From NCBI GenBank assembly GCA_951406725.2, contig OX597814.1:66278001-66342000 (forward strand): 64,000 bases of DNA, in the 5' to 3' direction. Below, piece by piece: positions 16,397 to 48,030 of the stretch. Under the pieces are notes generated by a model. That model was not told where the DNA came from and did not search any database. It was given only the letters and a program-made list of their open reading frames with translations. Each line of letters starts with the position of its first letter. Within the stretch, counting starts at the first letter, position 1. Position numbers and translations under genes: made by a program. Source of the DNA: Octopus vulgaris (taxonomy: Eukaryota).

Positions 16397-16536
16397 TGCG
16401 TGCTACCACAAGCACTAAGTGTTTTCAATTGAAAACTCCAACAGTTAAGTTATTCAACAGTTTACCAAGAAACAACAGTTGTTAACAATATTAACACCAC
16501 GAAACAGCAATTCTTACTTCACGAACACATGTGCGA

Positions 16537-23137: not shown

Positions 23138-26100
23138 TTCTAAGCCATTTAGGTCACTAATTTCACTTGAGTAAAACAGACATCACTCTTTCCTAATTAA
23201 TACACTCTACCGTAAAACCGCAGGTTTTTAGCACGTAATCAAAAAGAGAAAAAAGTTGTAGAGTGTGACTAATGTAAGAATTAACTACCTCAAGCAAATG
23301 CAGTGACCCACGTCGAATATCCCCTTTATTCTTGCTCTTCGTGGTTAACAGGAATTGCTCCACAAGTGTTTTTGAGAGCGATTAATTGTCGGAAAAATTA
23401 CAAACTAAATACATAACTTTAATTTATTTCGTAATTCTACAGTCTGTGTTCAATTTCTACCAAAGCGGTATTTATCATTTGGAAGTATTTATCATTGAAT
23501 AATACAAAGAACAGATTCTTCTGTCCATAGACAAAGATAACTTTCTGCCTAAGCAATGTTCTATTGTTTTCAATACCGCAACCATAGATAAATTATTTTA
23601 ATTAAAAAATATATTTATCTCTTTCTTGAATTATTTTTTTATTCACTAAATATTTTATTGCAATACATACATACTTTTTTTTTGTAATATTGCTGAAGAA
23701 ACGGAAATTTGACACCTGTTTTTCTTTTCAAAATTCAGCGGTAAATTATCACGTGACTTAAATTGGGTTGTACTTTCATAAATACTACATTTGTCAGTAA
23801 TGATTGTATTTCTAGACTTCAATGTCACTGCTTTATATATATAACCGCAATTAATATCTAGAACCTTCAATAGTCGAAAGGAAATTGATTTTACTTCGAT
23901 GGATATTGATGATATTGTATGCGAGTTTGAAATTGGTTTCGATCAAGTGGTAGGTGTTGTCTTTTGCTCTTAACTATGTAACGACCGTATAGAAAAAAAA
24001 ATTGTGTCGAATGGGCTAGTAATTTCATTTCAGTTTCCACTTATTCACCTTTTATTCATTGTTTTATAGCCTTCCATGAATACATCTCTTTTAGGTGTAA
24101 TTTGCTAAATTTAAAACTTAAATACCATGTCCTGTATTATAGTTTTTAAAGTATGCTTCAGAAAATCAAAGGTTTATTAAACTACCCGTAAAATTCAAGT
24201 TTGCTTTCAACAATTCTCTTATATTTACTTTTATGAGTACATTATATATGCAAACCATTTTTTTTTCTTATGTCTTGCTATATTGCCATGTATTGAAAGA
24301 CAGGAATGGTTTTGGGTGTTCTTTTAATCTTATAAATTGTAGTACTTTTGGCATTTTGTATTAAAATGTATTAATGATATTTTGTAAGGTTATCTTCTCA
24401 CGCTAACAGCCAGTCTTCAACGAATGGAGCCTTAACTGCATAAGCGTATACCCCACATCTTTGTTTCCCTATGACTTCCTTTAAAATGCTATTGTTCCGT
24501 AAAATTTTCCGGAGATATATTCAAATTTATCTTCATAAAATTTAAAAACCTTAATCGTAGTGCATCCCATAGAAAACGTATCTATGGAAAATTTCTTTTA
24601 AAAAGTGTTTAAGAAATACATGAGGAAACAAGGTATGCAGGGCACACTTTTTAGTTACGCTGAATTTGAAATATACGTGTAGCAGTTTTACTTAAGTTTT
24701 TACAATAATGATGTAGAGTTAAAGGTGGGCTCCAAGGAAGAAGGTAAAGCGAAGCATTTTCAATTCCCGATTAAATGTTTACCACTTAGCGGCATTTAGG
24801 GGGCAGGAGAATGGATGTCACACTTCTGAATTTCGAAACCTACCCAGTGTTCTATATCAAATCTGCTATCTTTGCTGTCACGTTTTCTTTTTTTTTTTCC
24901 CCCCTTTTTGTTCCACTTGTTTTCAAATCGAGAGTACTGATAAAGTTTTCTATACTAATTCTGAAGATGAAATTCATTTTTACCATAAATGAATGAATAA
25001 AAAGTCAATGGCTTTTAAAGTTTGCAAATTTTGGGTAATTTTAGTCGAAAGCTACGGGCACATTGATGCCGGTTTCCATTGTAACAAGCAAGCTGTTTAC
25101 TATAAGCACCTAAAGCGCTAAAAACTACCACCACGTGTATTTTTTTTGCCTGCGTATTTTCTTTGACGAGTGACTATTTTCTGAACTTCCGTTTTTGAAT
25201 TGTCGTTACAAAAAATGTACTTTGTTTACAAGAACTGAACTATTACTACACTATAATATAGTTTCTTTTTTCTGTAATTTTTCTTTTTTAAATAATTTAC
25301 TTGCCTATTCAATCGTTTGAACCCTTACCCTACACCCTAACTTTAACCTTAAACACTAACGTACATTTTTTTTGTAATTTTTCGCAAAATTTCGTTTTTT
25401 CCTTTTGGAATTATTTACATATCTGTTCGATCTTTTCACATTATTTCAGTCCTTAAAACTTCAACTTTTGTCGTTGTAATGTTTTGCTTTTATTTTATTA
25501 AATAAAAATTCATCGTTGTAATGTTTTTGATTTCATTCTGTAATAAATAGGCAGCTATCACGTAGAAAATACCAGATTCCAAATTCTTTCTTTTTTTTTT
25601 TTTTTTTTTTTTTTGCTGGAGTAAAAATGATCAAACTTTAAATCTCTAACGTTTTCCTAAAATTTTTCTGGAATAAGTGTATAACAATCAGATTCAATGT
25701 GAAAAATTATGCTAATATTTGAAATTTGAAAATTTTCACTTTATTTTAAAATTTCAAAACTTGTGATAGCTACAGATAATAAACCTGATTGAACAAACCT
25801 ATGATCAAAAGCATTCCACCCATGCCCACTCCAGTTGGTACTTAACACAAAAAGCGCGACGGGCCACAATCGCGGCCGTCAGGTACAGGTTGACAGGCTA
25901 CGATCGAGGCCTAGATAGATGCATTTACTTTATGGGCATTTGTTGGAGTCTAATGTCGCTCAAACGCTCCGATACTCCACCACCCACCCACCCCCAGAAT
26001 GCAAGAGGGCTAATAGTTCAACTAATGACTTCAGATGATGTAAAACTTGCCACCATTATATACAAAGAAGATATTTTAACTTTGATAAACGTCAAACTTT

Positions 26101-26584
26101 TAGGAGTGTTGTTACATCAATAATTCCGTTTCTATTATAGAGTGAAACACATTGTCTACCTTTTTCTTTTTTTCTCGGTGTTGGGGTTCTCCGCAGAAGT
26201 ATTACCCATTTGTAATCATTAGCCGTCATAAGCGGTTTGTGTTCCTTATATTAAGCAACACTTTCTACTGGTACTTATTTACAGCCAGATTTGTATCATT
26301 CAGTGTAATTTGCTGGGACGCACTACGAATTTTCACATGTCACAGAGGGCAAAAAGGAGGGGTCCTCAAACTTGATATCTGATAAAAAAAATTCGCAACA
26401 GAATGGACGGTGTAGTTTAGTTAAACTGGGTGATAAATCTACCATGCAAGTAGACTATGGCCGAATTTGAAATCAGCATAACAAATACCGCAAAGCAACC
26501 TGTCAAATGTTCTTACACTTCTCACCAATCCACCAACATGGTTTTTTATCAACTCCGACAGAATGAAAAGCAAGGTGAACTCCA

Positions 26585-27119
26585 TATTTCTTTATTATGA
26601 TTATACAATCGTTACATAGAAGGACAAATACAGGACATACATGCAAAAAACAGTTAGGAGGTTCGATTAAAAATTTTCCATAACATTTGGATTATTCATT
26701 ATAAAAATTCGTCTGTAAATTGTCCTTTACATGACCAATAGAATATTATAACATTACATAAACGTTCGATCTTACCGAAGTTTTAAACCCCGGCAATTTA
26801 TAAGGCCCCGCAGCTTTTGTTTCCTCTCCTCCCTCCATAGTTAAGCTGGGTTTCTGACACCCACCTTTTTTTCCACTTCCTTCCATATTTTCTCATACAC
26901 ACCCCGTGGTAAGATCCTCTTTTCCAGCCCCATTTTGCTCTTCAGATGATATCTGAAGTAAGTGAGCAAGCCGGGGCCCGAGACAAAGGATCCTATCGCG
27001 ACTCCTTCCATTCTTGTTCGCCACATGCATTCTTTTACTACTGCAACCGTGCAGTGAAAACATGCCTCACCTTCCTTCGAGAGTCCAGTTGGCGGTATCA
27101 TCTTAATCGTAGACTCAGC
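26585..27119 (-). mobile_element. 5'-truncated Tx1 LINE 3' fragment with 17-bp TSD, inside a degenerate SINE A
   Basis: TSD aagcaaggtgaactcca at 26568-26584 and 27120-27136; peptide …VAVVKECMWRTR…SGPGLLTYFRYHLKSKMGLE homologous to the ORF2 C-termini; ends aataaagaaata. Confidence 0.9.
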
Positions 27120-27702
27120 AAGCAAGGTGAACTCCAAGAATTGAACTCAATGTGCTGAGATATATATATATACTGCGCAGTATACTAACCGACGCCCTTT
27201 ACAACTCTACCAGTTCGTCGCCAAGTTGGCATTGCAAAACGAACTTCAACCGGCACCATTGTTTTTTACCCTGGCCACGGCATCACTCGTCAATGGGATT
27301 TGATAGACGGAAACTATCATTCATTCATACATACAATTTACGATAAACACTCTATCATTTGTTCCAAACAGCGACAATGGTGAAACGTACGTAGGAAAGA
27401 ATAATATAAACCTGTTCTACATTTGCTCTGCATAACTAGTAATACTACTAAGTAGGTTGGTTGCTCAACTACTAGGATCAGATTGAATGATGATAATCTA
27501 CGTAGTGCTCTAAACTTAACAGTATCAGTCGTATATCTTTTTGTACACACAAGATACAGTATATATAACGGTTATGTATATTTCAACGAGGAGACTGAAA
27601 AACCAATACTTTAGAAAACAATATCCCGAGCAGTTTTTTTTTTTTTTCCGTCGAGTTACAGTTTCTGGTCCCTTGCACTTTTAGAAATATAGTGAGCCGG
27701 TG

Positions 27703-27753
27703 ATTGGTCCGCTGGAAGCCTACAACCATTCATGCTTTTAGCCCAGTATAAAA
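27703..27753 (+). promoter_or_regulatory. Candidate Pol II core promoter (inverted CCAAT + TATAAAA) for the SOHLH-like gene
   Basis: ATTGG at 27703-27707 and TATAAAA at 27747-27753; ATG at 27789 with a weak phase-0 donor after 27815; motif evidence only. Confidence 0.3.
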
Positions 27754-28539
27754 TTAGCTGTCGTCTGTAATTCTACCAGCTAAACCCTATGAATAGACGT
27801 GCGACTAATCTCAAAGTCCGTTTGAGTAAACTTGAAACTGTCGTTTAAATTTGTTGTCGAGGAACGTTGACAGTTTTCTTCATGAAGCTTTAAGTCTGAA
27901 ATTTAACACCACCTTATTACCAGTGCAACCTACGGAGCTTATTCCTAGATACTACTGTATTCATCTATATTTAGATGTATTGGATCATTTTATAATTAAG
28001 TTGTTGGCCGCACAGCTGGTGTATAGATGAATCTTCGACTTTCCTCTCGATTGTCTGATGTGTTAACTCATTTACAATCTGAAAGTCTGTTATATGCTTC
28101 TAAAACGCAAAGATTGGAGAGACCGATGTTCATCACCGGTTTTGAGAGCGCCATTCAAATATTGCAACAAATAAAGTTCTCAGTGTCGTTCCAACAGCAC
28201 CAGATTGTATTGTAACATTGTCAAGAAAATTTAATTCTCTATGGTCACAGTACAGCTTGCTCAAAATGTTTCATGAGCTTTACTGCTGAATTCACGAGTC
28301 ATCCTTCAAAGTATTATCAGGCGAACAACCTTTAAAATATCGATTGTAAACTCGGCCGAATCACTTATACAATTGGGTAGGCTGAAAAATGCAACACCGT
28401 ATCAATGCTGTGACCCTGTCTAGATATCCCACCGCTGTTATATTTGTTAAGTGATTCTTAACGTATTGAATGTAGTGAATCAAAAAATGGCAATAAAAAT
28501 ATACCTGTAGTGAACCTCAATTATTAATAGCACTCCGAT

Positions 28540-28827
28540 GATTGCGACGACTAGTGTTCTTGTTGATCTGATCAACGAAACAGCGTCCTCGTGAAATTAA
28601 CATGCGTGTGGCTGAGCACTCCACAGACACACATACTCTTAATGTAGTTCTCGGGGATATTCAGCGTGTCACAGTATGTGATAAGGCTGGCCCTTTGAAA
28701 TACCTGTACTACTCATTTTCACCAAATGAGCGAACTAGAGCAACGGGAATAAGGCGCCACCGGGAACTGAACTCGCGTCCTTATGATCGTGAAGCGAATA
28801 TCCTAATCACTAAGCCTCACGCCTTCA
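28540..28827 (-). mobile_element. tRNA-derived SINE (family C)
   Basis: Minus strand begins gaaggcgtgaggcttagtgattagg (A-box-like)…gagttcagttccc (B-box-like), then a ~230-bp body. Confidence 0.65.
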
Positions 28828-30038
28828 ACTTCATTATTAATTTTAATGATAAAAGACTAGAAAACAACACCGAAGTGTATATGAATTGAAAAGGAATGTT
28901 TTCTATATCATTGTTGAAACATCATTGAGGACTTTCCAAATTCTTGCATCATTCCATATCGGTATATTGGTGAGAGAATTTCAGCTCAGTAGTGCATAAA
29001 GAAGAAATGTGTGCAATCAATGATATACAGATTACAGCTGTATATTTTTACTTATCAACAACTAGGTGGATGGAGCCATTGAGAATTAATGAATACTACT
29101 CGGCACCAAGGAGGATATTTTTTAACTCCAGATTATCTCTAACCAAGGAGATTTATAATCATAGGCATGCTAGCCATCTCTGTTAAAACAATTAATGTCC
29201 CTCTCAAAATAAAATATAAACGGTAGAGTGCTATTTCAGAAAGTTATGGATCTATTTCTAGCAAATCAAACAACTGCGTTGAGAGTGTAATTCTATTTGC
29301 GTTCCAGCTCTTCATACTCTTCAAACTATAAAAAGATGATACTATAAGTCTGACGTGACGTGTAACAAAGGTAGGAACCACTATGTAATCACTCAGCTTA
29401 CGAAAGATAGCAATCATCACTCATTGAAACCATATCCAATACCCTTAAAAACACAGTGTTTATAAGACCATGTGGTCATAAATATACGAAAAGACGAAAC
29501 AGTCACAATTGGAACGTCAATGATCATAGGCGTGTCCAGTGAGGGTTAGCCTAGGGTTAAATAGTTACAAACTATAAGATGTTGACTTTAGTCGTCAGCT
29601 AACAATCAACTTTTATCATGTTTAATACTGGCAAAAAATAATATCAAGGGAGAAAACTTAGAATTATAAATTATAATTATCTCCCTTAAACGCTAAACTT
29701 TTCCGTACCCAAAATATCTGCATTTTATTTTTCTCAGTCTATTTTTAATTAGTTATAATATACATTTTTTAATCGTTTACTTGTTTCAGTCATTAGACTG
29801 CAGCCATGCTGAAGTACCACCTTGAAGAACGATTTGATCGCGTAATTTTTTGTACGTCTGGTATTTATTTTATCGGTGACTTTTTAATCACTAGTTTACG
29901 AACACTCAGATTAATTATTTCCTTATTTTTCTTGGTTTTAATTAATTCTTGATATTCGAATAGTTATAACGGTAATGAATTCTATTGGAAAACTTAATAT
30001 ATATGTCTTCTGGCTACGAAAATATCGTCTATCCTTTA

Positions 30039-30270
30039 TTTCTTTATTGCCTACAGGGGGCTAAACACAGACGGGGACAAACAAGGACAGACAAACGGAT
30101 TAAGTCGATTATATCAACCCCAGTGCATAACTGGTACTTATTTAATCGACCCCGAAAGGATGAAAGGCAAAGTCGACCTCGGCGGAATTCGAACTCAGAA
30201 CGTAACGGCAGACGAAATACCGCTAAACATTTCGCCCGGCGTGCTAACGATACTGCCAGCTCACCGCCCT
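30039..30270 (-). mobile_element. Full-length SINE family A with Tx1-type tail and 12-bp TSD
   Basis: TSD gtctatccttta at 30027-30038 and 30271-30282; ends …tttagccccctgtaggcaataaagaaat. Confidence 0.92.
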
Positions 30271-30539
30271 GTCTATCCTTTAATATAAATGTTCGATGGA
30301 ATGAGGGATGTAGTAGTAGTAACAACGAAGGAAAGCAGTATCAGACACCAGCTGGAAAGTTGTTGGTTGGTATTTTGTAGCAGCATAGGTTGTATAAATA
30401 AGACAGTTATCTTCCAACAACCTTCAATGGCGGTGGCGCTTGGTTCTGGTGAGGATTCTGTCGATTCGCAAAGTGGAAAAAGTTATTTGCTATATACTAC
30501 CGTCCTTCCCAAGAGAATGCAATATTTACTATTGTGACC

Positions 30540-30950
30540 GGATTCCAACCCGGGATGCAGCAACAAAGTCCAGCCGCCATATTTCTTTGCCCTACCTCAC
30601 TGCCTCGAGGTCTTGGATACATTCCAGGCTAGTGTCTGCAATCAAATTGTTGATGTGTGACGACGTTTTCCTCTTCTTACATCCCCATGAAGTGGATTCT
30701 ACAAGACTAATTTGGATGCTCCCAATTCAGGGCAGTGCGCACAACGACCAGTTAATCGCAGCCGTTTTTGCCTGATCTTCTTGCTAACTTTCGGCCAGTT
30801 TCCACAAAAGCATTCGTTTGTCATAGCACGGGAAACGGGAGATATGTACAATGCAAATGTCAGCAGCATCGCAACTGGAGGGTAAATCATTTTCATCCGG
30901 TCACTGGCGTTTTCGGGTATCTACGATCAACAGACAAACTTAACTGACGA
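30540..30950 (-). mobile_element. Degenerate RTE-like LINE 3' fragment
   Basis: KVSKKIRQKRLRLTGRC…SKLVL resembles the RTE-type ORF2 C-terminus (RRLRxAGH…); by eye. Confidence 0.5.
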
Positions 30951-31243
30951 CGATTGTGCCTTCTAAAGATGCCTTGATAAGTACAGCTATGTACTGCCCC
31001 GACTATTGCAACACCTTAAGTTAAAGGCCTCCTGGGAGGCAGTGTTAACGAACGGGGACGTAACTACAGTCTCGTCTCTTAGAATATTATAACATTGGAT
31101 TTGAGATCTTGTTCTGATTACGAGATACAAGAGTTTTCGTTCATAGCTTTTCAGCTAATGCTTAACGTGCCACACACTGTTTTCGCTAAAAGAACTTAAT
31201 CAATTTAAACTAGAAGTCATTTATTATGCACTTTCTTGTTTAG

Positions 31244-31740
31244 GTCAACGATGGCAATGAAAAAAATCATACTTGTGCCGATTATTCCAGTCCTGAAACT
31301 TCAGATGATTCTTCGTCAGATTTGATTCAAACAAGCACAGAGGTATTGTGTGATTCAGGACCATTCAAAGATAAGTGTCCCAGTTGCCTTAATAATTCAA
31401 CTTCACAATCACCACTTTCAGCTCAGTCACTTTCTCCAATCTCAACACTTGCGGCTACTCAACGGAAAACCTCAGATTGCTCACCAATTTCAACTGCCTC
31501 ATCATCATCACAATCAACTCCGTTGTGCTCAGCCGGTGTCTCTTTAGTGATAGGCAGCTTGAAATGGTGTACAGAACTAACTGAAATAATAGCCCGGCTC
31601 ACTATTGGTCATCAAGTGCAAGTATGTATGGATGATGAAAGTGCGTATGAGATGTGCAACAGGCAAGCCTATAGCTTGATATGGCTTCTAGTAAACTCAC
31701 CAGTCAATCAAGAATTACTTAGTCTTACAACTTCCATTAG
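31244..31740 (+). CDS. SOHLH2: SOHLH2-like bHLH TF, exon A (Ser-rich N-terminus, start of receiver-like domain); upstream exon missing
   Basis: cttgtttag|GTC…ATTAG|gtaagt; open in phase 0, exits in phase 2; VNDGNEKN…SLVIGSLKW…TTSIR. Confidence 0.8.
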
Positions 31741-32606
31741 GTAAGTCGTTTTCAGGAAAATATTTTCCTAAATTTTGTCTAGTTTGCTTTATTTGTGTAA
31801 TATAGATTTTATGTAATGCTGCTGAGTGGTTTGGTTTAGTCGTTCATTATTGATTGGTCTGTAGAGCACGTGGCGGTGTCTTTCATCAAAACATTGTAAA
31901 AGCACTCCTCTCGTTTGTAAAGTAGAAGCTTGTAAGGAAGAACATATAATTCACTTCATGCAACTTAGTGTCTTGAGGATGTAGCACTTGCTTCTCAAAC
32001 TAATACAAAAATTAACTGTAATCTTAAATATCGTGGTATATTAATCATAGACTGGCTGAATGAAAATCGCTAAGACATGGAGTTAGACTCGGTTCTTATA
32101 GGCAATTCACCAAAACCTTATGAAATGATAGCATTAGTTACGAGACTTACAGCGTTACTTTTTAATTTGGACATTTTCCTTATAATACCCCCTACTGCAT
32201 CGCTAAGATTTTTTTGTGAAGATTATCTAAACACAAAATTTCTACAGTAGCTATTCATTATCAATCAAACCACCTACATACTTAAGTTTATCCATTAATG
32301 TATCCAGTCGATTCTCTTAGTATAATTTCATCAATTTTTCAAGAAAATACTTAGGAAGCTGTTTAACTTCCAGTACAGGATTGTCTTGCAGATCTTTCTC
32401 CAAAATATCTAAAAGATTTAGTGCATTCTTTGCTACAATCATATCTCGAAAGTTTAATTATCAACTGTACATAGCGCACTGTTGCATAGGAAAAGAATAT
32501 CAGAAAGTTATAAGATAAAAGTCTGCTATTTTTGTTTGAAAACAGTTGTATTTTGTCCGTTGTTGTTAATTTCGTTTTGATGTAGAAAATCTCTCTTGTT
32601 TTTTAG

Positions 32607-32668
32607 ATATGTCAGTAAATATAACAAAAATGCTATCGTTATCGGAGTCTCTCCCACTGAAATTGATG
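32607..32668 (+). CDS. SOHLH2: SOHLH2-like exon B
   Basis: ttttag|A…GATG|gtaagt; YVSKYNKNAIVIGVSPTEID; phases 2 to 1 fit. Confidence 0.82.
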
Positions 32669-33350
32669 GTAAGTTTTTCTAAAGTTTATTATATTTATTA
32701 TTGAATTACATGAGCCGTCATCTCTGTACCAGTTCCTTGATAAAGACGCTTCAAGTATTCATCCCTCATGCTTCTCAAATAGCCCAATCCATCTTGTTTT
32801 AAACATGCGCCACCAATCGAACACTGTACAAATGAGTTCCGGTATTGGTATAATAGGTTAAGGAAATCTGATTGCTTAGAATAATTGATACTAGCACAAG
32901 TAAGGTACTTATTTTCATTGACCTCATAAGACAAGCAACGACAATCCTCGGCATGATCTGAACGCGGTATATATGTAATATTTGCCGAAAAGCTACTACA
33001 AATGCTATAGTTTCCTTATCTTTCTATAGGCTCTTGTGTTAATTCATCTTCTCTCATTAATAAAATTTGCGTTAAATGACCTGAAAAGTAAAATTACTCT
33101 CAGTCACTTGAAGTGATGAAAACTGGAATAAATCCCAACACTCTTTGTCTTCAAAATCATGGATTATATGATTGATTCTGCAAATTAATTGATAAATGTC
33201 ACTGATACAAACGTCCTTCTGATTTCATTTTTCGTGTAATATAATATTGCATGATTCTGCCGAGGTTGACTTTGCCTTTCATCCTTTCGGGGTCGATAAA
33301 TTAAGTACCAGTTACGCACTGGGTCGATATAATCAACTTAATCCGTTTGT

Positions 33351-36300
33351 GAAACCACCCCTCCCAGAGTGAACTTAAAAAAGAAAAGAGAGTCGATGAA
33401 CTCGTATATGGCCGTTAAGGCATCAAATAACAGACTTGGAAACGTACTGGCAGCTATGGCCAAAGTGGAGAGAATAGGGAAAAAGAACGACTATGTAGTT
33501 TACAGGATAGGCCGGAAGGATTACGGACGGATAAAATCCGAATTCTTCCATGACGTAGGCCCACTTAGAATGGATGTGACATCTCCACATATATTCGAGG
33601 GCCTACGTCAGACTCCCCACGAGGCCCTGAAAAAGAGTTAAACAAAGAAGAGAAAGAGAAAACCGAACCACTGATATAAAGGTAAGTAATGGATTACATT
33701 TATGTTGGTTGTTTGAATGTGCGCGGCCTGGGAGCAGGCTGGAAGCAAGGTCGCTTCCTGCATGATATCAGGTCGCGTAATTTAGATGTTATTGTTGCTA
33801 CAGAAACCCGGTTAGAGGGGCCAAGAGGTCTACTCCCGCTGTTTGACGGCTACGAGAGTTTTTTCTCTCCTGGCAGTCCTACTGGCGGAAGTGGGGTGTT
33901 GTTCCTAATAAAAAGAAACCGGGTTTCTGAGAAAAAGTTAATTTTTGCAGATCCAGAAGGTAGGCTGGTCGTCATGGATTTGACGTTCAGTAACGGTAAA
34001 GTTATCAGACTGGTTGCAATTTACGTACCCACCCATACAGGGCAAAGTGATTATTTTCGTGAACTAGAAAACTTTCTTAGTACTTCGCATTCATTAGTTG
34101 TGCTAGGAGACTTTAACACAATTTGCAAAGCGGATGTAGATTGTGTTGGCTCGCGTTCAGATAGAAAAGGTAACAGTGGCTTCATGGAACTACTAAGCCG
34201 CTTTGAGCTAGCAGATCCTTATAGGCTGGAATTTCCGAACGCTCCATTGTGGACATGGTCAAACAGCGACGGATCTTCCAGGTCATATTTAGATAGAATA
34301 CTAATTAGAAAAGTAGACAGAAAAATAGCTAAGTGTCCACAGTTTTACCCGATCAGCTACAGTGATCATAAAATGGTCACCTGTAAGCTTGACATAGATA
34401 AGGTTAAAAATAGAGGATCCGGTTACTGGAAACTTAATACGTCCCTTTTGGCGATTAAGGAGTACAAAGACCGGATTAGGACTATAATTCAGAGGGCACT
34501 ATCTGGTACCATCATTAATAATAAATGGTGGTACGCCCTCAAACGAGCCATCAAGTTCGAGTCAATTAGATATAGCATAGGAGTAGTGGCTAGAGAGGCT
34601 AGGAGGGAAACTACTCTAGTTAAGGAATTAGAGGAAGCCTTGAAAACTGGCTCTGCGGCTCAGGTGGCGTCCAAGAGACTGGTGTTAAACCAGCACCTCG
34701 AGGCCAAACACATGGGCTGCATTGTCAGGGCTAGGATCCGCGCAATAGGATGTGAAGGAATCAACGCCGTGAGATGGGCCCGAGTGGTGGAAGCCAAGCG
34801 TGGTAACGATGCCACGATTCGATCTTTGACGAACCAACAAGGTTAGTTGATAAACGAACCCGAGGAGATGTGTGAGGCCTTTCAGGAGCACTTCGCTCAG
34901 CTTTTCGGTGAGTGCGGCGGACTGGACAGGAGGAGGGCCTATACGGACCTACTCGATGGGCTGCCGCGCTTATCGGGGCGAGATGCGGAGGGCTGTGAAG
35001 GGCCAATCACGCCTGAGGAGGTGGTTGAGGCAATGGCGGACTGCGGCGCGGGCAAGGCGCCGGGTTTGGATGGTCTACCCTATGAGTTATATAAGAGTAT
35101 GCCAGACTTGTTCGGGCACCTACTGGCGGAGGTCTATACGAACTGGCAGCAGAACGGGCTCATACCCAGATCTGTGCGCCGGGGAGTAGTGACACTCGTC
35201 AGAAAGGACCCGAGCAAGGGGAGTGCATTGATAATTTCAGGCCCATCACTCTGCTAAACACAGAGTTGAAGATTTTGGCCAAAGTGTTATCGAAAAGATT
35301 GGCGCGTGTCGCGGATGGTCTGATCGGGGAGGCACAGACATGTGCCGTTCCGGGCAGAACCATTCAGGATAATCTCCATCTAATGCGGTACACTATAGAG
35401 GGGTTTAATAACGATTCTGGCAAGGGTGGGGCTCTGGTCCATTTAGACCAATCTAAAGCATTTGATAGGGTCGACCATCGTTACCTGGTATCTGCTCTGG
35501 CACAGTTCGGGCTGAGCCTTGGCTTCCTCAGGTGGATTATCCAAATTTATGATAACATCGACTCGGTAGTTCGGGTGAACGGCTTCTTGTCGAAGCCGTT
35601 CAAAATCAGACCTCCAAATAGAGAAGAATTGGGGCGAGGTAACGAGCAAGGTGGCTGCAGTAGCCAAGACCTGGTCTTGGCGTTGGCTATCCCTGAAAGG
35701 GAGGGCGGAGGTGGCCAATGTGTTTATCACATCGGTTATCACCTACCGCCTTTCCGTCGTTCCTTGCCCTGATTCGTGGTTGATCAAGTTGGAAAGACAG
35801 CTCTTCTACTTCTTGTGGAAGGGCGGGAAACCACTTGTGAAACGCTCTACTTGCTGTCAACAACCGTTAAAGGGTGGGCTAGGGATGCCTTGGCTGATGA
35901 TGCGCAGACATGCGCTGAGGTTAAGACATCTGTGGCTCTATCTGGATGGTGAACGGGTGTGGTCTCCGCTAGCAAAACTGATGTTTCCCAAGTTCACTAG
36001 TTTCGGTGGATGGGAAACCTGGCTGAATCGTAGATCGAAACTTGGTACTTGGTACACGGAGTGTCGCAAGGCTCTCCTGCTAGTCCGTCGCTCGGGTAAC
36101 GCCTGCGGTGGGGGTTCCACCACATTCTTCTATAGAGGGTTGGTAGAGGCGGAATGTGAAGATACCTTGGGGGAAACCCTAGGTCTCGACGATAATCAGC
36201 TGGCCAGTCTGTTCCGACGTACGTTCAAGCCGAAGACACTGGACAACTTCCAGAAGTCTCTGGCATGGCAATGCTACAGAGGAGCTCTACCTGTTCGGGA

Positions 36301-36984
36301 TAAACTCGCAAGGCACGGTGGCCGAGACAATCCGATATGTCCAAGATGCGGGCGGGACAGGGAAACCGTCCCGCACGCTATTGTTCATTGTCCGGACGTG
36401 TCTGAGGTGTGGGTTTATGCCGAACAGCTGTTGTCAAGTACACGAAGAGTACAGCTGTCGACTGAGTCGATTACAAAAATTGACCCACCGGATTTCCTCG
36501 CGAATGAAGGTAAGTTTCGTTTTCTCGTTGTAGTAGCAATTGCGAAAGAGGTGATATGGAAGACGAGAATGAAAGGTCTACAGTCAGGCAAGTTCATCTC
36601 CGGCCCTGGTTTGATGAATTATTTCATCTTTCACCTGAAAAGGAAGATAGGGCTGGAGAGAATATGCCTGACTAAGAGAGTGTATGAAGAACGATGGAAA
36701 GATGTAGCACGAAAGTTGCGAGTGAATGATACAACATAAATGTAAAACCAAACGAAACCAAAAGTATCAGTGGGGAGGCGGGGCTCGTGGGGTCAGAGCT
36801 AAACCCGCACCCACTCCACCCGTAATGTCTTCCGGTCTGTTCCAACATTCGATTTCTTGCTATTTTTGTAAATTTCTGTAAATTTTTAAAATTCGCTTTT
36901 TTGTAAAACCCATTCGTGTGTCTGACCCCATCATCAGATTGTATTGTCCCATCTATGTTCGCCCCTAGTGGGTAATAAAGAAAT
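33351..36984 (+). mobile_element. 5'-truncated Tx1 LINE (ORF1 tail + ORF2) with 16-bp TSD
   Basis: TSD aacttaatccgtttgt at 33335-33350 and 36985-37000; ends gcccctagtgggtaataaagaaat. Confidence 0.95.
33689..36739 (+). pseudogene. Tx1 ORF2 pseudogene (stop, frameshift, ~345-bp deletion removing QGCPLSP-FADD)
   Basis: Colinear with 11467-14866; stop at 34844-34846; shift at ~35230; deletion junction KPFKIR|… at ~35610. Confidence 0.92.
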
Positions 36985-37512
36985 AACTTAATCCGTTTGT
37001 CTGTCCTTGTTTGTCCCCTCTGTGTTTAGCCCTTTGTGGGTAGTAAAGAAATAAATATAATATTGCATAACTTCAGATTTGTTATTCAGACACTTAAAAA
37101 GTTCCACCAAAACTGATGTTCATCGCAGCTTTTTCAATTGTTTGTCTGTGAGAGTCAAAAGGATGATTCAACAATAAAGTTTGACCCACTTGTTTTGCTC
37201 AGTTCTTTGAATTAATCCGAAACTTTATCGGGTGAATAAAAGTCAGGTACCTCCACCAGAACTTTTGACTTTATTGTTTGAATTCTTGGCCATCTCTATC
37301 AGATGTAATTGAAAGATAATATATAAGGTGTGACTGTGCAAAGAAAAGTATTTCATGTAAATCCCTTTGTTTGATACATAAGCAAATCAAAAGAAAACAA
37401 TTTCCGTAAAAAATAGGAACTGAGGAAATTATGTTCGTTTATTTTATTAATATTTGTTAATTTGAAGCTATGGCCTAATTAATCGAAACTTCATTATTTC
37501 ATTTTTTTTCAG

Positions 37513-37617
37513 TTGATCTTAAACTCCATGGTATTGATGAAACCGTTGTTCAGCCGGTCACTAAGTCCATTGTCAAAAATAAATACAGCAAATTGACATC
37601 TGTTCAACTGAATCCAG
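37513..37617 (+). CDS. SOHLH2: SOHLH2-like exon C (end of receiver-like domain)
   Basis: ttttttcag|TT…CCAG|gttagt; VDLKLHGIDETVVQPVTKSIVKNKYSKLTSVQLNP; phases 1 to 1. Confidence 0.82.
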
Positions 37618-38055
37618 GTTAGTTGTGTGTGTCTTTATAGGAATTAATCTGGGCTTGGATTTTCACTCATTTAAATATAATACAAGTGATTTATTTCTGA
37701 TATGCGCAGTCACACTTTGTTGCGAGAAAATACTCAAGTATATCAAAACCAGTACTTATTTATTTCATCGAATCTCGAAGAATAAATCGGAATTTGAACT
37801 CGGAACGTAATAGGAAGCAACTATAATTCGCAAGACATTTTGTCCATCCCTAGAATGATTCTATGGTTCATTGCCTTCAAATATTATATAAATGACGAAT
37901 GTTTAATTGAACTGAACTTCTATTCAAGTCAATGAAACAATCGTTATTGTTTGAAGAAAGAAAGTATACATAAGTATTTCTTTTATTTTTATTTCATGTA
38001 TTTGTTGATATATTCAAGTTGTAACATACTTTAAAAAATGTATATTTCCTTAAAG

Positions 38056-38107
38056 CGGAACAAGTGACTGAAGAGACTTGCTCAGAGAATTCTACCAATC
38101 TATCAGA
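38056..38107 (+). CDS. SOHLH2: SOHLH2-like exon D
   Basis: tttccttaaag|CG…GA|gtaagt; AEQVTEETCSENSTNLS; bridges phase 1 to phase 2. Confidence 0.72.
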
Positions 38108-39930
38108 GTAAGTATATCGAATTGAAATAGTTCTTATTAAGGTACTGGCCTAAAATTCGTACAAATGCTTTGTGGTATCTTCAATCATGCTTCTATTATT
38201 CTATAAACGTCTATCCACATAACTTTCAAGAGAAATGGTGTTTGATGGAGTCGTAGAAGCACTATTGAAACATACGTTGTAACCTAGTATTTTAAAACTG
38301 GTAGTTTTAAAATAGCCAGAGTTGCAGCCGATTTCTTCCAGAGAGAAAGGGTAAGAGAGAAGAATTGCCCTCGTATCTGGATTGTTCTTTATTTATTGAC
38401 CCCTAGAAAATAAAAAACAAATTGACCGCAGCGGCATTTGAACTCAGAGCGTAGCGAGCCGAAACCTGTATCGTAAGGCACTCAATTTGACGCTTTAGAG
38501 ACTGCTAAAACACCACTTTTTCAAGTGTATCAAAGCCCTTTAAAGTGGTTTCTTTAAAAAAACAAATATTGTCTTTTATTTTTTATGAGAACTTGTTGAC
38601 AGGATTCGAATTCTAGCTCTAGCCACTTCATTTGTGTCGTTAATACCCTAACTGAAGTCTGCGAGTAGCAGAATCGTTAGCATACCGGATAAAAAGCTTA
38701 GCGACATTTCTTTCAACTTCACGTTCTTTGTTCAATTCTGCCGGGGTCGACTTTGCCATTTATTCTTTCGGAGTTCTAACCCACGACTGCTGGCATTGTT
38801 CCAAAATTTGAAACTAATATCTTAATTGCATAATAATGAGCCATTTTAGTACATGCTTTATGGTAGGGTGTGACTGTATGACTCGAAGCCTAAATTAACT
38901 ACATTGGTTTTCCCTTGAAATGAAGGCTGTCGCGCAGGACACGCTGTATTATGGTAATGATTTAAGAGGTAACGATCCCTTCTGTCTTCTTTCGATCAAC
39001 AATAGTAATTAAATCCTGTGTGGTAAGATGTATTCACTCTAGATCGGGACGGGTTATATGGAGCATTTGTATAGTCAGAGAATCAGGTGAGGGGGCAGAT
39101 TTAGCATGTCACAGGCTAGTGTCACTCTATAAGTATGCAAGGATCACGGCCAAAGATATTGACACAAGCATTGACATCTGGCTTGTTGATGCCATTGTGC
39201 AAGTATATTGACAGGTTGTAAGCATGGAAGTGCAACAACATGGCTGAGTAGGGTATGCAGGAAACTCAATGTCCAGATCGATTATCACAAGACTACGCCC
39301 TTGAACTGTATTAAATTGAGGGAACAGAGAGGTCAATCAGAATGGATGTGCAAGGCAGACGGTCATATGAAGGCCTTCTGTCCAAAATAGGTAATGGGGA
39401 AAAAAAGCAGGAGGCAAACAGCAACGACAGTTGGGCCCTAGAGGTCGAGGCCATGGCTGTTGCCAAACGGCATTTCTAGAGCATTACTGGTCACAGCCAG
39501 AATGGAAGAAAACGAAATCGATTCATCTTTAGTACTACTACATTCGGGTCGAGAGTCTGGTGGATCTCCTCTTCCAGCGCAGCACAGGAGAGGTCAGAGG
39601 TTATAAATAGCACTTGATGTGATAAGGAGTTGGAAACTGAAGTTTGGTTATTAATTATCACTTACTCTGGGAAAGAGGAGACAAAAGTGTGAGTTATAGT
39701 AAAAAGGATTATTATTTGTTGTTACAATCATTTCAGCGCTGAACTAAATACTTGTGATATTACTTCATTTTTACATTTGATTTTAAAACTTGCTGTGGAT
39801 CTACTTTCAAGAGTAGATAATATAGGTGCGATTTAAAATACTAGAATGGATATTATCCATTATAACTTACTCAAAATATGTAACTCTGTATTAGTAATCA
39901 CTTTTTTTTTTCTTTTCAAACTGGTTTCAG

Positions 39931-40086
39931 TGTTGATGGCAATGAAGGAATTCCGCCTCATATCCGTGATTACGACCAATATGCTATCAGGCTAGACCAA
40001 ACAAATATAACTACAGTCACTGCTCAGTTGAAATCTCCAAACATTTCTAACGGACATGATCATACAGCCAAGGAAAAGTTACGTCG
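39931..40086 (+). CDS. SOHLH2: SOHLH2-like exon E (bHLH basic region)
   Basis: tttcag|T…CG|gtacgt; …NGHDHTAKEKLR. Confidence 0.87.
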
Positions 40087-40657
40087 GTACGTAGAACATT
40101 GTTTGCAGTTTTATGTGGTATCCTTAATCATTACTCGTTAAGAGTGAGCATTGATAGTTGAGTTAATACATTACCAGACAGTCAGCCAGAAGGTTCATAT
40201 TTTGTTGTAAACATTGTACAACGTCGGCGTCGAATGCAATCCCTTAACTGTATTCTTTGACTTAAATATATACTAAAGGACATCTTAACTGAACGTGTTG
40301 AATTTGATGTGTGAATCATTAGTTTAGTGTGCTAAGTCCAGTTTTTCTTGTTAGAGAATTTACTTGGCATCATATCTAGAATAAGATTTCCCTTTATCCA
40401 TTTCACCACAATAATTGTCAAATGAATCATCAACGAAATGAACTGAGAAATTTGACCTCAAACTAATTTCCTGAACAATATTTCCCATATATTGCCTGGA
40501 GACGACCTCTCTATCATTGGATTAAACATTAACAATCTGGACGATATATAATAATATGTAATTCTGAACACCACTGAAAGTTTTCTTTTTGCCTCATATA
40601 ATGTACGATGCTCCAGAATGACTCTTTTCACGTTGCCTTCTTCGTAGGACAAAGTGC

Positions 40658-40796
40658 ATTTAGGGTATTCGAACTCAGTCAAAACAAATCAGCATTAGGA
40701 ACTTGAACTTCTAATAGTTTCACCCTGCAATCTTCAAGTTTGCTGATACACCATTGAAATGACCATTGAAAAGAGGAAACATCTTGCTCTTGTTTG
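40658..40796 (+). repeat. Local direct repeat, copy 1 (copy 2 at 42308-42467)
   Basis: atttagggtattcg…ctgatacaccattgaaatgac near-identical in both introns flanking exon F. Confidence 0.85.
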
Positions 40797-41243
40797 CTCA
40801 GGCTGATGTTTAGCTTGAAATGTGTTCCATTTCAGTCTCCTTGGCGGGAAATGTTGGCAAATAGTTTCCAGAAGGATGATTTGCTTCATATGGAGGTTTA
40901 TGCAAAGCAATCAATGTGGACCTTGAGTAGTGGGACCCACTATTGATGACAAGTGGAGAAGATGGAAGTGAGTCAGGTGGACCTGCCTATATGTGATGGA
41001 CATGTTACCAGCTCAGGCAGTTTTAGTAGTTACTCTTAAGACAGATGGAAGTGAGTATGTTACTTAGTTGTAACAAGTTGGTAAATGAGTCGTTACCAAA
41101 CAACTAAAAGTTCTATTTTGGCATACGATCTAAGAATTTGATATCCATGCATTAGAGCAGTACCGTCTTAGATTTGTATGTAGTACTAAACCGTTAATTC
41201 ATCGCTTTGGATTTTATTAACGTATTTATTCATTCATTTCCAG

Positions 41244-41391
41244 AGAACGCATTAAAGAAAGCTGTAGTCAATTAAGAGTACTACTACCATACGTAAGAGG
41301 CAGGAAAACTGACATGGCGTCCATTTTAGAATTAGGTGTTAGTTACATAAAAGTAGTCAACACTATCTTACCACAAGAATTACAGTCTCAG
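41244..41391 (+). CDS. SOHLH2: SOHLH2-like exon F (helix-loop-helix)
   Basis: tttccag|A…CAG|gtaaaa; RERIKESCSQLRVLLPYVRGRKTDMASILELGVSYIK closely resembles the vertebrate SOHLH2 bHLH (recalled as KEKLRRERIKxCCEQLRTLLPYVKGRKND). Confidence 0.9.
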
Positions 41392-42887
41392 GTAAAAAAA
41401 ATCATAATCTGCTTATTTAAAAATTTTTTTATTAATGTTTCTATATATCAAATTATTAATGAAGCAATGTATTAAAAAATAACTGATTAGGCTATTCTGC
41501 CTTTCTGCTACATATTACACATGGGTAAAGAAATTGAGGTTGGTTGGGATCTTTTAATGAATCGAGTTCACTTTCGCTGCATTTCAGTGTTTTTTCTCTT
41601 CATCAGTTGTAGCAGCCCATGCATGAAAGCTGCTCTTCAATAAGTTGTTAAGACTATTTGTGTTGTAACAAACAGCTAATTGACCAATTTCAGTATATTA
41701 CTGTTAAGTTAATGCCTTCATTATGACTAGTTTGTTGTCAACAATAACTTCTCTGAATGACGCGATTACTTCTATTACTCTAAAACTATTAGAATAGTGT
41801 CAAGGTATCCATCACCTCTGGAAAATATATGATGTTTTAGATTGAAGATAGAACAAGCAGTAGCTTCTGATGAATTCTAGAATTTGATTTGGCTTCGATT
41901 GTCAGCTGGCTCAAGTTTCCTTCGACTATAGCGCTAACAGAGTTCGGTAAGTGCTGAAATACAGATTTGTTAGTGCTGAGTCGATAGGATAAATCTTACT
42001 CAGGTCCATGACGCTACCCTGCTGGATGTGACTTCCTTGAAAAAACCAGTAAGCCAACAAAATATTTCTGAATTCCATAACTCTGCTACCGTGTAGTTTA
42101 CAAATACACTTGTGACAGTTTTTGGATTTATTTATTTAGGTGTTCCCGGATACTGAAAATATTATCTTGACCACAAATAAAACTCTAATGACAGGGTACA
42201 AATTTGCTATCTGGTATCAATCAGGAGTTCAACTACCCAAAGATATTTTTATGCCATTGGCAAATTCATAACACTTAACGTGTATTTCATTTCTTTCATT
42301 CCTAAATATTTAGGGTATTCGCACTCAGTCAAAAACAAACCAGCATTAGAAACTTGAACTTCTAATAGTTTCACTCTGCAATCTTCAAGTTTGCTGATAC
42401 ACCATTGAAATGACTGTCCAATCACTTCTGTGACTGGAAAAAAGAGGGAACATTTTGCTCTTGTTTGATCTGCTAGAGATAGCAGTCAGAACTCTTTCAA
42501 ATAACACTTTTCTAATGAATGCATTTGAATAACGTAGTCACAGAGACTGTATATCTAAACAATAAAGATACTCATCTGGTGCTACAATGCTATTTCCAGG
42601 AAGCCACTCTTCTCATTACTTCTAAGACATACGAAATATATTTTAAAGAACTTCAATAGTATCAATAGTGTACATCCTAAAACTGTTTCATGTAACTATT
42701 ACTTATACTGATTAGCTCACCATGTACCTCATTCAATATGGTACACAATTGTATTGAGTATGGTGCAGCAAGGTGGATGCACATTGTTCAAAAGTACTGC
42801 ATTAATGACATTGTATGAACTTATTCGCATAATCGCCTTCGTAGTTTGTAAATTTGTATGGATTCAAGTCGTTTATTTTCATTGCAG

Positions 42888-43057
42888 ATTACAAATATTC
42901 TCAGTAAAGACTACGTAGTGAAAGAGAATACAATGAAATGTAATCAGCCGAATATGGCATCATCCAGAGAAACAACGGCTCCGGTGCAAAAAGTTATCAA
43001 AACAAATAAAGATCAAGATTACACGTCGAATAAACTAACTCCAGTCTCCGAATTTGG
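42888..43057 (+). CDS. SOHLH2: SOHLH2-like exon G
   Basis: attgcag|ATT…GG|gtattt; ITNILSKDY…VSEF; phases 0 to 2. Confidence 0.78.
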
Positions 43058-43924
43058 GTATTTTTGCTGTTTCCTGTCGCTTTTTTTTTTTCATTGTACT
43101 TACATCCAATAACATTCTCTGAAAGCCACAGCTGTATCGGACATAATTCATACAGAAGGTAGTTCGTATCTTTCCATTGATCTTGTGCGGTTTCTGCTCT
43201 GAAAGATGCTTAAATCTCAATGGCCCAGTTTACTTGTCAGTAAATAGCGTATGTCACGACTGTAAGAACTATCAAGAGTAAAACTGAGTACTTTTGTGAC
43301 ATGCATGTCCTAGTTCAATTTCTGCCGTCTTATTTCAGGAGGAGGGTTTGGTCGAAGGATTTCAATCTATCAAGGTAAATCGCACAAGTATACAAAAAGC
43401 TATTAATGTGTTTGTTGGAAAAAAAGACGAAGATAAACATGCTCTAGCGCAGCGGCGAAATAGTTATTAGCGTTCTAGTTCATGGATCGGGATTTCAAGT
43501 CATCTGCTACCATGTTGCGTTTCAGATCTTTTACGAGCCTTAGTTCACTAATGAGTTGCAGATAGCTGACTGAATATGAAGTCGGTCTACTAATGAATGA
43601 ACTAATAGTGTATAATCGCATGAACGTTATACAATCTATTTTAACTATGAGACAGAAAGATACAAACTGTTAATATCTCTGAACATGATATGAAAACTTC
43701 TGTGGATGCTACCCAATTTAGTTGAAAATGAATACCATGAATAAATACAATTCATATCGAATTAATAATATAGATGCAGGATCATCTCATGTTTCAGTGC
43801 TAAGTTCAAATCCTCCCTTGAGCTTTAGCCATTGTTAAACAATTTACTTCGCATACGAGTTAGAAGCCGTTATTCTTATTCTTTTTTCTTATTGTTTATC
43901 CTCTCTCTCTTTCTCTCTCTCTCT

Positions 43925-43976
<52 letters not shown>

Positions 43977-45492
43977 CACACACACTAATTCCATTTGTCT
44001 AGCCATGAAGAACAAGTACAACGGCTCGATACAAAAAGTGTGTCCAATAATAGTTCGGCAAATGTTGCAACGTCACCAGTCAAGAGACCTAATTACGAAA
44101 TGGATGGAACTACAAGTTCTAAGTACCTGGAGACAAATGGTGAGATCCTTTACTAATTATGCTATAATTATTTTATATCCCATAAAATAATTAATGACAT
44201 TTTTATATATGGCGGTGCCCCAGCAAAATGGCGGTGCCCCAGCATGGCCACAGCTCATAAGCTGAAACTGGAAAAATCAAAATCATATGTGTATGGAGTG
44301 GGGGTTAATGCCTTTAAGTAATATTTCCAGGGGTTAACATGTGAGTAAATGATTTCTTACATTGAGAATATAAAACATAAGTTTGCTTTTCATCACCAGC
44401 GCTGCTTTTATTCCAGAGGCAAAAACGCTTAAGTTTTTCTTGTACATAATTGTTAATAAGTGTTAATCTGGGCTGACAGAATGTGATATAAAATTATATG
44501 AATCGCTTTATTTTTTCATAAAATTACAACAAAAAGTAATCAGTGATGTCTCTACTGAGGCATTACAATTTTACCTTTCGGTATCGTATTTTTTAACAAA
44601 TTAAAACAAAAATTATTGTTAACCCGGGTGTTCCAAACATGATGATCAATTTTTTTAGGCATAGTATACCTAGAATTACATTATCCAATGTGTCCCTCCT
44701 CTATAAAAAACAATATAGAATTATACTTTACTGTCTTTCTAATAAGCAGAAGAATATACTAGTTATACTAATCTTAGAATGTAATAAGAAATTATCTGAA
44801 TCACTTTATTTTTTCCTTAAAAGTATCAACAACCAGTTAAAAGTTCCCTTGTTGGTTCCTACATTAAAAATTGAAACGGGTTGCGGCTGAAGTGTATTTT
44901 TAAATACATAAATATCGATATAATAATACATACTAATGACTAAAACGAATTGGTTTCAAATTTTGACACCAGACCAGCAATTTCGAGGGAGCGCGTAAGT
45001 TGATTACATCAACCCAAGTGTTCAACTGCTACTTGTTTTATCGAAAGGATGAAAGGCAAAGTCGACCTCGGTGGTATTTCAACTCAGAACATAAAGTTAG
45101 ACAAAATGCCGCTAATAATTTTACCCGGCGCTTTATTTTGATAAATCAGTATTCCGTAATGAGTTATGCAGAAAAAAATTTCCAAAGCACAGCCAATTTC
45201 CTAATATAGGTATTAACAGTATACTTCCAACCGCCTTTCATCTAATATACAAGCTTTATATGTTCATTAAAGTCAAACCAAAGGTTCTAATACCCAAAAT
45301 AGTATTGAACAAGACTATATACTCATTAGGAATTTACATGCCAATCCTGTCGGAGTTACCTTGTCATTGGTAAAAAATAAAATACCAGTAATAAACTGAA
45401 AATTATCTTTCTTCTGAGCGATCTTTGAATCAGCTTTCCATTGTTAATCAAACGCATTAATTTTTATTTGTTTCTTCGAATCCTATTTATAG

Positions 45493-45716
45493 TATGCTAT
45501 ATAAAATAACGTGCCAAACACTTTCAGATACACATCTACAATATGCTATCCGTAAAGAACCTCGATTAGAAATGACTGGAACTGCAGAGAGTGACGAAAT
45601 AACACTTCTTGAATACAAGAAAAACTTCAAAGATCATTCCATTCCCAGTCGACTGACCACCACTGTCTCAACAAACTCGAAACCTATACAAAGTGGCATT
45701 TTAAATCCAGAAATCC
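45493..45716 (+). CDS. SOHLH2: SOHLH2-like exon H
   Basis: tttatag|T…C|gtaagt; GMLYKITCQ…LNPEI; phases 2 to 1. Confidence 0.72.
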
Positions 45717-47506: not shown

Positions 47507-48030
47507 GATTAATTCCTGTGGTTAATGCAAGCAACAAAAATTACGTGGAGCAGGAACCACCTATGCATATGTGTCCATATTCATTACCTGTATACCAAGC
47601 AAACGAGTGTTCTGTTCATAAACAGATTGCACCAGTTGGACCACAATTATTTTGTCCACCAAGACAGTACCTCAGCTACCCAAACCTTTGTGTATATCCA
47701 TCTAGCTATTTTGGCCATTCGGAAATCGGGCAAACGGATGGTAATTTTGTAGCTGGAAAATATAACTTCAATGACAATGAATTTGAGCATTCAAACATCC
47801 CCATGTATTATCATTGTTCAAATAATGAAGCACCAAAATCTAACTCCACAGAAATCGTGCAGATGTCAAATTCAACCCAGTCATCTTTCTATAGATCTAT
47901 AGTTGATAAGCCATTACCTGCTGATTACCCTTTAAACACTCATATGGATACATTGCCCAGTAATGAAACAAACGAATTGTTTAACGGCTTCATAACAGTG
48001 GCAAACACACCAACCTCTGATACTTCATAG
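47507..48030 (+). CDS. SOHLH2: SOHLH2-like terminal exon I
   Basis: Pyrimidine tract + aag|GA TTA ATT CCT GTG…; open to TAG at 48028-48030; exons total 1938 nt = 645 aa + stop; AATAAA at 48134 and ~49008. Confidence 0.75.

Follow-up and report, generated by a model that had tools for sequence, protein, structure and literature searches.

The N-terminal domain of SOHLH2 is, with hardly any room for doubt, a homologue of the CheY-like receiver of two-component signalling systems. The gene examined here lies in a 64,000-nucleotide (nt) stretch of the Octopus vulgaris genome (assembly GCA_951406725.2, contig OX597814.1, positions 66,278,001 to 66,342,000, forward strand), which we call the window and whose numbering is used throughout. 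Judged from its residues, the octopus domain is not a canonical phosphorylatable receiver, the Asp, the acidic pair and the Lys all being absent. A layout of two receivers followed by a basic helix-loop-helix (bHLH) domain is found in choanoflagellates and two other unicellular holozoans, and its link to SOHLH2 is new here. SOHLH2 very probably descended from a holozoan gene of this layout. The reading that we favour, and consider likely, is that the octopus receiver is a relic, inherited along with the bHLH from a receiver-receiver-bHLH regulator of a unicellular ancestor and kept as a phosphorylation-independent interaction module.

The locus is an 11-exon octopus SOHLH2 gene. It was delineated by mapping P0001, the 706-residue Octopus sinensis protein of LOC115212551, on the window, where its exons run from 23899 to 48030 on the + strand; the joined octopus frame is open for 696 residues, 695 of which are those of P0001, aside from a seven-residue gap in exon 5. 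The three exons that the initial annotation had called A, B and C have AG/GT ends, and their joined frame is open and an exact substring of P0001. Exon A, ending at 31740 with GT next, exon B at 32607-32668 and exon C at 37513-37617 all fall where that annotation had placed them, and its spliced peptide corresponds to P0001 residues 116-231 (31538-37595). With exon A as query, two of 19 candidate proteins were recovered, P0001 and its O. bimaculoides counterpart. The exons of the model, with the evidence for each in brackets, are as follows:

23899..23949, +, exon 1, coding part with the start codon (tblastn with P0001, open frame; protein match alone)
31244..31740, +, exon 2 (exon A), a Ser-rich stretch and then, from 31538, pseudo-receiver beta1 to alpha3 (read joints, P0001 match)
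32607..32668, +, exon 3 (exon B), alpha3-beta4 loop and beta4 (flanking joints in runs X1, X2 and X16)
37513..37617, +, exon 4 (exon C), alpha4, beta5 and alpha5 (part of X2 contig 24)
38056..38107, +, exon 5, linker (open frame; fit to contigs)
39931..40086, +, exon 6, linker and bHLH basic region, with H-x-x-K-E-x-x-R-R from 40061 (joints, P0001 match)
41244..41391, +, exon 7, helix-loop-helix and the conserved helix after it (Pfam HLH, E 1.6e-9 on P0001 307-351; joints)
42888..43057, +, exon 8, C-terminal region (in both contigs described below; open frame)
44003..44139, +, exon 9 (tblastn, open frame; protein match alone)
45528..45716, +, exon 10 (tblastn, open frame; protein match alone)
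47507..48030, +, exon 11, to the stop codon (tblastn, open frame; protein match alone)

Four sequencing runs were aligned to 23900-43800, with exons 9-11 lying outside that stretch. X1 and X2 come from one study and X16 from another, their reads are present as contigs, and the runs are probably RNA by the tool's guess (tissue not given); the argument uses spliced joints, not depth. The GT..AG joints 31740/32607, 32668/37513, 40086/41244 and 41391/42888 are present in contigs of X1, X2 and X16, and the large DNA-like run X15 gave zero for these joints, with about 76% of X15 read and some joints uncounted. The joint between exons 1 and 2 and exon 5's own joints are not among the read joints displayed. 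A contig of 2477 nt in X1, and another of 2601 nt in X2, has exon A followed in order by the bHLH exons, so that single contigs of probable RNA runs uphold the proposal that transcripts link exons A-C with the bHLH exons. The 54 nt that lie in both contigs between the matched parts of exon 4 and exon 6 equal 2 + 52 nt, matching exon 5, which is seven codons shorter than in P0001; the X1 and X2 contigs fit the short form. Chance or mis-splicing was rejected on the strength of the spliced joints in contigs and the open frame matching P0001, and bacterial contamination was rejected because two spliceosomal introns split the receiver domain.

The initial annotation had read the spliced peptide as a (beta/alpha)5 receiver with decayed phosphorelay residues, and its assignments are right at all four positions. 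The acidic pair is replaced by G121-S122 (31553-31558), the phospho-Asp at the end of beta3 by L166 (31688-31690), and the Lys of the Lys-Pro after beta5 is lost in Q217-P218 (37551-37556); the beta4 Thr/Ser is kept as S198 (32650-32652). The AlphaFold2 model of the octopus domain has five beta/alpha units (predicted local distance difference score 94.5, predicted template-modelling score 0.89), and with this model Foldseek places receivers in its top rows (template-modelling, TM, scores 0.78-0.83). A structure search of 48,161 chains likewise returns receivers first, the best being GacS D1 (Z 16.3, root-mean-square deviation 2.2 Å over 120 residues). The expected CheY-like fold is thus borne out in the predicted model, which has the fold in common with the receivers of hybrid histidine kinases (GacS, Sln1) and of response regulators (Z 14-16). 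An ESM Atlas search with residues 112-236 met two clusters of Response_reg and a third, unnamed, at 0.86, under the 0.9 line, which we treat as a lead only.

Sequence comparison points the same way, at the level of the family. A profile from a 20-sequence alignment (12 molluscs and 8 mammals) matched solved receivers with expectation values (E) of 2.9e-8 (3c97_A, a histidine-kinase receiver), 3.3e-6 (Sln1) and 5.5e-5 (GacS), and two-component proteins fill rows 1 to 11 of the 27. Pfam finds HLH only in the octopus proteins; the single octopus sequence has no Response_reg match even at E 10, and among the 20 domain sequences one matches Response_reg (E 0.073), beside seven unrelated one-member matches. 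The profile comparison put forward initially therefore succeeds with the family profile against solved receivers and fails with Pfam Response_reg on the octopus sequence. Three outcomes had been named that would have undone the original reading (another fold, the lack of a receiver profile match, and exons A-C separate from the bHLH exons); all three were examined, and what was found is a five-stranded fold, matches to receiver profiles and linked exons.

The domain is widely retained in animals, with an active site complete in none of the copies compared. With residues 105-370 as query, 84 homologues were found among 1621 candidates, consisting of mollusc proteins and mammalian SOHLH2, and an iterated profile detects the N-terminal domain in 80 of them, in a few only in part; the likeness to the vertebrate SOHLH2 N-terminus, first put forward in the initial annotation, is confirmed by these matches. 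Further carriers include Hydra, hagfish, lamprey, chimaera, amphibian-type and platypus-type SOHLH2 records and a chiton, so the conservation earlier described as running from molluscs to mammals does include both and has the wider range of Hydra, hagfish, lamprey and chimaera. No frame loss is seen from Hydra to mammals; octopus and other molluscs share 34-50% identity over the domain, octopus and mammals 15-22%, and five columns are invariant across 20 domain sequences. None of 24 animal domains, from Hydra to mammals, has a full active site. The phospho-Asp is kept in one of the 24 (Hydra vulgaris P0212), where the other site residues are lost, and the pattern in this sequence makes it a possible intermediate in active-site decay; the Lys after beta5 is kept in none and the Thr/Ser at the end of beta4 in nine. 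Mammals and one gastropod have Lys in place of the Asp and Glu in place of the Lys, and across animals the residues at the former active site differ widely.

Six mammalian SOHLH2 records (P0078, P0081, P0082, P0120, P0133 and P0164) skip receiver-coding exons and keep the bHLH, with joints that coincide with the octopus A/B and B/C intron positions, an agreement that supports placing the octopus gene in the SOHLH2 family. These records may be natural receiver-less isoforms or annotation artefacts. An unnamed partial protein, P0114, also has an animal-type dead receiver.

The closest relatives found for the domain belong to unicellular holozoans. A receiver-only profile run against 1.84 billion proteins gave 842 matches at E <= 0.001, and among the 150 matches listed 12 proteins combine one or two true receivers with a bHLH, which the query lacked (the Pfam scan covered 62 and a further set of the 150, our own bHLH profile all 150). 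The named carriers are Monosiga brevicollis XP_001748279.1, Salpingoeca urceolata, S. infusionum, Didymoeca costata, Mylnosiga fluctuans, Acanthoecidae sp., Choanoflagellata UC4 and Clim_evm32s7, and Nk52_evm16s32 and others were added by a holozoan bHLH profile search; we take 'Clim' to be Corallochytrium and 'Nk52' to be Chromosphaera. UniRef names the holozoan proteins 'Response regulatory domain-containing protein', and our searches found no function for them. The initial annotation had looked to bacterial, fungal and plant regulators for comparison, and this is where it has to be revised, the nearest relatives found being these receiver-receiver-bHLH proteins. A further unnamed protein of 877 residues, P0102, has several receivers, and no kinase domain was found in it.

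It is the second holozoan receiver that keeps the switch. The active site (acidic residue, Asp, Thr/Ser, Lys) is complete in 20 of 20 copies of receiver 2, in 3 of 19 of receiver 1, and in 167 of 173 other receivers, these last having been picked as best matches among the 1.84 billion proteins. When 212 non-animal receivers were ranked with a profile of the 24 animal domains, holozoan receiver 2 took places 1-13, with a median of 62.3 bits against 40.3 for receiver 1 and 33.5 for the others, and profile-profile comparison (hhalign) of the animal domain with receiver 2 gave a probability of 98% (E 2.9e-13, 103 columns). In 21 of the 24 animals the receiver-2 profile scores above the other-receiver profile. 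An Arg/Asn/Trp triad occurs in 19 of 24 animal domains, 17 of 19 copies of receiver 1, 20 of 20 of receiver 2 and 22 of 173 other domains. The general receiver profile was restricted to cutting out domains because animal sequences were among its seeds, and scoring used separate profiles.

In the bHLH, the motif H-x-x-K-E-x-x-R is invariant in 12 holozoan bHLHs, found in 156 of 171 collected bHLH proteins, and absent from all 10 outgroup proteins, MYC2 and Max. In the bHLH tree SOHLH2 is nested with choanoflagellates and a tick protein (85/85); the octopus bHLH groups with named SOHLH2 (100/98, 17 rows, with thin outgroup sampling), which, with the shared bHLH type and best homologues named SOHLH2, places the octopus gene in that family. 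The holozoan proteins (for example, Monosiga brevicollis XP_001748279.1) have the domain order, closest receiver sequence, Lys-Glu motif and a helix after the bHLH in common with SOHLH2, this helix being kept from choanoflagellates to mammals; they differ in carrying two receivers, of which the second has every active-site residue, where animal SOHLH2 has one. Two proteins, P0113 and P0272, have a zipper-like extension after the bHLH where choanoflagellates and SOHLH2 have the short helix.

Receiver trees were built from 76 rows (19 of 24 animal domains, 13 of 19 of receiver 1, 14 of 20 of receiver 2, and the 30 best of 173 other domains) and, as a quick tree, from 45 rows (11 animal, 8 receiver-1, 8 receiver-2 and 18 other, with the long branches of Hydra, lamprey and hagfish left out). 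The 45-row tree unites animal and holozoan receivers in one group (Shimodaira-Hasegawa-like approximate likelihood-ratio support, SH-aLRT, 98), and in this set a grouping of the animal domains with receiver 2 is not rejected by the approximately unbiased test (p-AU 0.35). Several results weigh against a holozoan origin. The free 76-row trees place the animal clade outside the holozoan receivers, on a long stem close to receivers of bacterial hybrid kinases, with weak support. As to the surviving copy, scores point to receiver 2 and the 45-row tree to receiver 1 (84), and the octopus domain alone is near a tie between the receiver-2 and other-receiver profiles (39.9 vs 39.0 bits). The nine outgroups of the bHLH tree, all distant, are eight plant proteins and one of PAS type, without animal Myc, Max, USF or MITF. 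With the holozoan bHLH profile, the receiver-less tick bHLH (70 bits) outscores the bHLHs of complete SOHLH2 proteins (about 35-55 bits), the octopus bHLH (41.1 bits) comes just under MYC2 (42.5 bits, the best solved bHLH) and Max (41.5 bits), and none of the 35 matches from 8000 candidates scored is a SOHLH2. Finally, the domain is absent from four of the 84 homologues, the heteroconch bivalve SOHLH2 records P0029, P0033, P0034 and P0037, for which lineage loss and short gene models are both possible. Because the 45-row tree joins animal and holozoan receivers, the free 76-row trees separate them, and a 76-row tree with that clade forced lies 1.78 log-likelihood units above the free tree (p-AU 0.63), the trees permit the clade and do not prove it; on these sequences they appear compatible with an animal and holozoan clade without being decisive on that clade or on the source copy.

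The position of the animal clade in the free trees is what one would expect had an early animal bHLH gained its receiver independently, from a bacterial-type hybrid kinase or another holozoan gene, with the likeness to the holozoan proteins arising by convergence. That the best solved-structure matches are hybrid-kinase receivers, and that with the holozoan profile the octopus bHLH fails to outscore Max, are in keeping with such a fusion, which we nevertheless consider improbable: the same two domains would have had to fuse twice, in matching order, in sister lineages, with the Lys-Glu motif and Arg/Asn/Trp triad shared besides, holozoan receiver 2 ranks above all 173 receivers preselected as best matches, and the constrained 76-row tree is not worse. 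The tick bHLH bears on another scenario, in which the holozoan gene is ancestral to the whole SOHLH1/SOHLH2/TCFL5-like group and an early-animal duplication left one receiver-less copy of the tick type, its bHLH little changed, and SOHLH2 with one dead receiver. Here the evidence tips slightly in favour, in that the tick protein combines its high holozoan-profile score and the same Lys-Glu motif with no receiver match and falls in the same clade; we take it to be TCFL5-like or an invertebrate SOHLH1. Two SOHLH clades are reported in cnidarians and lophotrochozoans (PMC5381572). Set against this, one tick lineage was sampled, the dataset holds neither SOHLH1 nor TCFL5, and a tree in which holozoan proteins and SOHLH2 form a clade excluding the tick is not rejected (p-AU 0.28). 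The duplication refines the descent that we favour more than it opposes it, and on the simplest reading the unicellular gene has more than one descendant among animal bHLHs, of which only SOHLH2 retained a receiver.

How a relic of this kind could have arisen may be sketched from the fate of two-component signalling. Animals have no histidine kinases, compared with one in Monosiga and 11 in Capsaspora (PMC6324907); animal proteomes showed no receiver in a two-component context (PMC4558063); and choanoflagellates retain the SLN1 system, which animals lack (PMC6040629). In unicellular holozoans a histidine-kinase phosphorelay would phosphorylate receiver 2 and so control E-box-type DNA binding. 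In animals, the kinases would have been lost, one receiver dropped and the other decayed at its active site before the cnidarian-bilaterian split, and the folded relic, still selected for as a docking surface for partners or for the bHLH dimer, would now modulate a germline factor. In mammals, SOHLH1 and SOHLH2 dimerise and are required for spermatogonial differentiation (10.1101/2021.06.17.448807), and in oyster and limpet the Sohlh genes are specific to the gonad (PMC6529535, PMC5381572). The existence of some records without the domain suggests a modulating rather than an essential role.

We lean, by a modest degree, towards partner docking as the role of the pseudo-receiver. Plant TOC1/PRR proteins are transcription factors that use a dead receiver for protein contacts, and they differ from SOHLH2 in having a CCT output domain, in belonging to a lineage in which the phosphorelay persists, and in keeping more of the active site. 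The plant type-B ARR receiver, which holds its own DNA-binding domain autoinhibited, offers another model, by which the relic would be a cis autoinhibitory switch on the bHLH, or one controlled by a ligand or phospho-Ser, instead of a docking site. Receiver-DNA-binding fusions such as ARR1 (8xat) are among the fold matches, the Lys-for-Asp and Glu-for-Lys replacements of mammals and one gastropod could lock one state, and the helix after the bHLH is conserved; we think a switch unlikely all the same, for the linker between receiver and bHLH is variable and of low complexity, spanning about 60-90 residues in SOHLH2 and reaching about 200 in holozoan proteins, and the wide variation of the former active-site positions argues against a conserved ligand pocket. 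A leftover domain, without function or serving only for stability, we regard as very improbable. Its absence from the four bivalve records, the exon-skip joints that cut it in several mammalian ones, and the low octopus-mammal identity would suit a leftover, and its retention from Hydra to mammals without frame loss, the identity among molluscs and the five invariant columns would not.

SOHLH2 likely came from a two-component system, because unicellular holozoans share its receiver and bHLH layout with intact switch residues. We tentatively extend the reading that we favour to SOHLH2 as a direct descendant of a two-component response regulator: a phosphorelay output that outlived its kinases would have turned its dead receiver into a regulatory surface and become a regulator of gametogenesis, possibly with SOHLH1/TCFL5-like receiver-less sisters. 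If this is true, the intact choanoflagellate gene would represent a living ancestral state and may govern gamete formation upon outside signals, and one fate of the two-component system lost in animals could be traced, its transcriptional output likely surviving as a germline factor. The mammalian fertility gene gains a folded N-terminal domain that is unannotated by Pfam, on whose receiver scaffold variants and partners can be mapped. The origin of the SOHLH family would move back from cnidarians to the holozoan ancestor; earlier work dated the family to cnidarians or pre-bilaterians and described the bHLH alone (PMC6529535, PMC5381572), with neither a receiver nor unicellular relatives mentioned in the parts of those two papers available.

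A receiver N-terminal to a DNA-binding domain, as in SOHLH2, is also the arrangement of OmpR and NarL types, plant type-B ARR and fungal Skn7. SOHLH2 differs from response regulators in its bHLH output and in the loss of the Asp, Lys and acidic pair, and animals are reported to lack any histidine kinase that could act on it (PMC6324907). It is not the only animal protein with a receiver relic, since the N-terminal REC of human PDE8A/PDE8B is another, likewise of uncertain role (PMC12346295; Pfam PF23198), attached there to a phosphodiesterase. Kinship between the two was considered and found no support: none of the 20 SOHLH2 domains matches PF23198 at E 10, and for that reason the PDE8 receiver is probably a separate relic, as far as these sequences indicate. 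Term look-ups in the available text of PMC6792448, PMC7147346, PMC8061703, PMC5560861 and PMC11988041 gave no mention of a link, and the open literature searched (supplements and most subscription journals being outside its scope) held nothing connecting SOHLH2 with a receiver or with unicellular relatives. The human SOHLH2 domain may already carry a label in databases annotated automatically from structure. Two-component signalling in unicellular holozoans, including T-box-receiver fusions, is said to have been described by Hehenberger et al. in 2017, and that work or its supplement may also list receiver-bHLH proteins.

Remnants of mobile elements, recognised by eye, occur in the introns of the octopus gene and elsewhere in the window. 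A retroelement of long interspersed nuclear element (LINE) type at 33686-36736 (+), with broken endonuclease-like and reverse-transcriptase-like frames, occupies a large part of the intron separating exons B and C; a similar LINE-type element, seen in the translations, lies at 11774-14869 (-). Broken zinc-knuckle-like frames at 46244-47106 (-), which sit in the last SOHLH2 intron, and at 15054-16402 (-) are probably the first open reading frame of a retroelement, and pieces of mariner-like transposase frames are found at 8209-9291 (+) and 5723-6717 (-).

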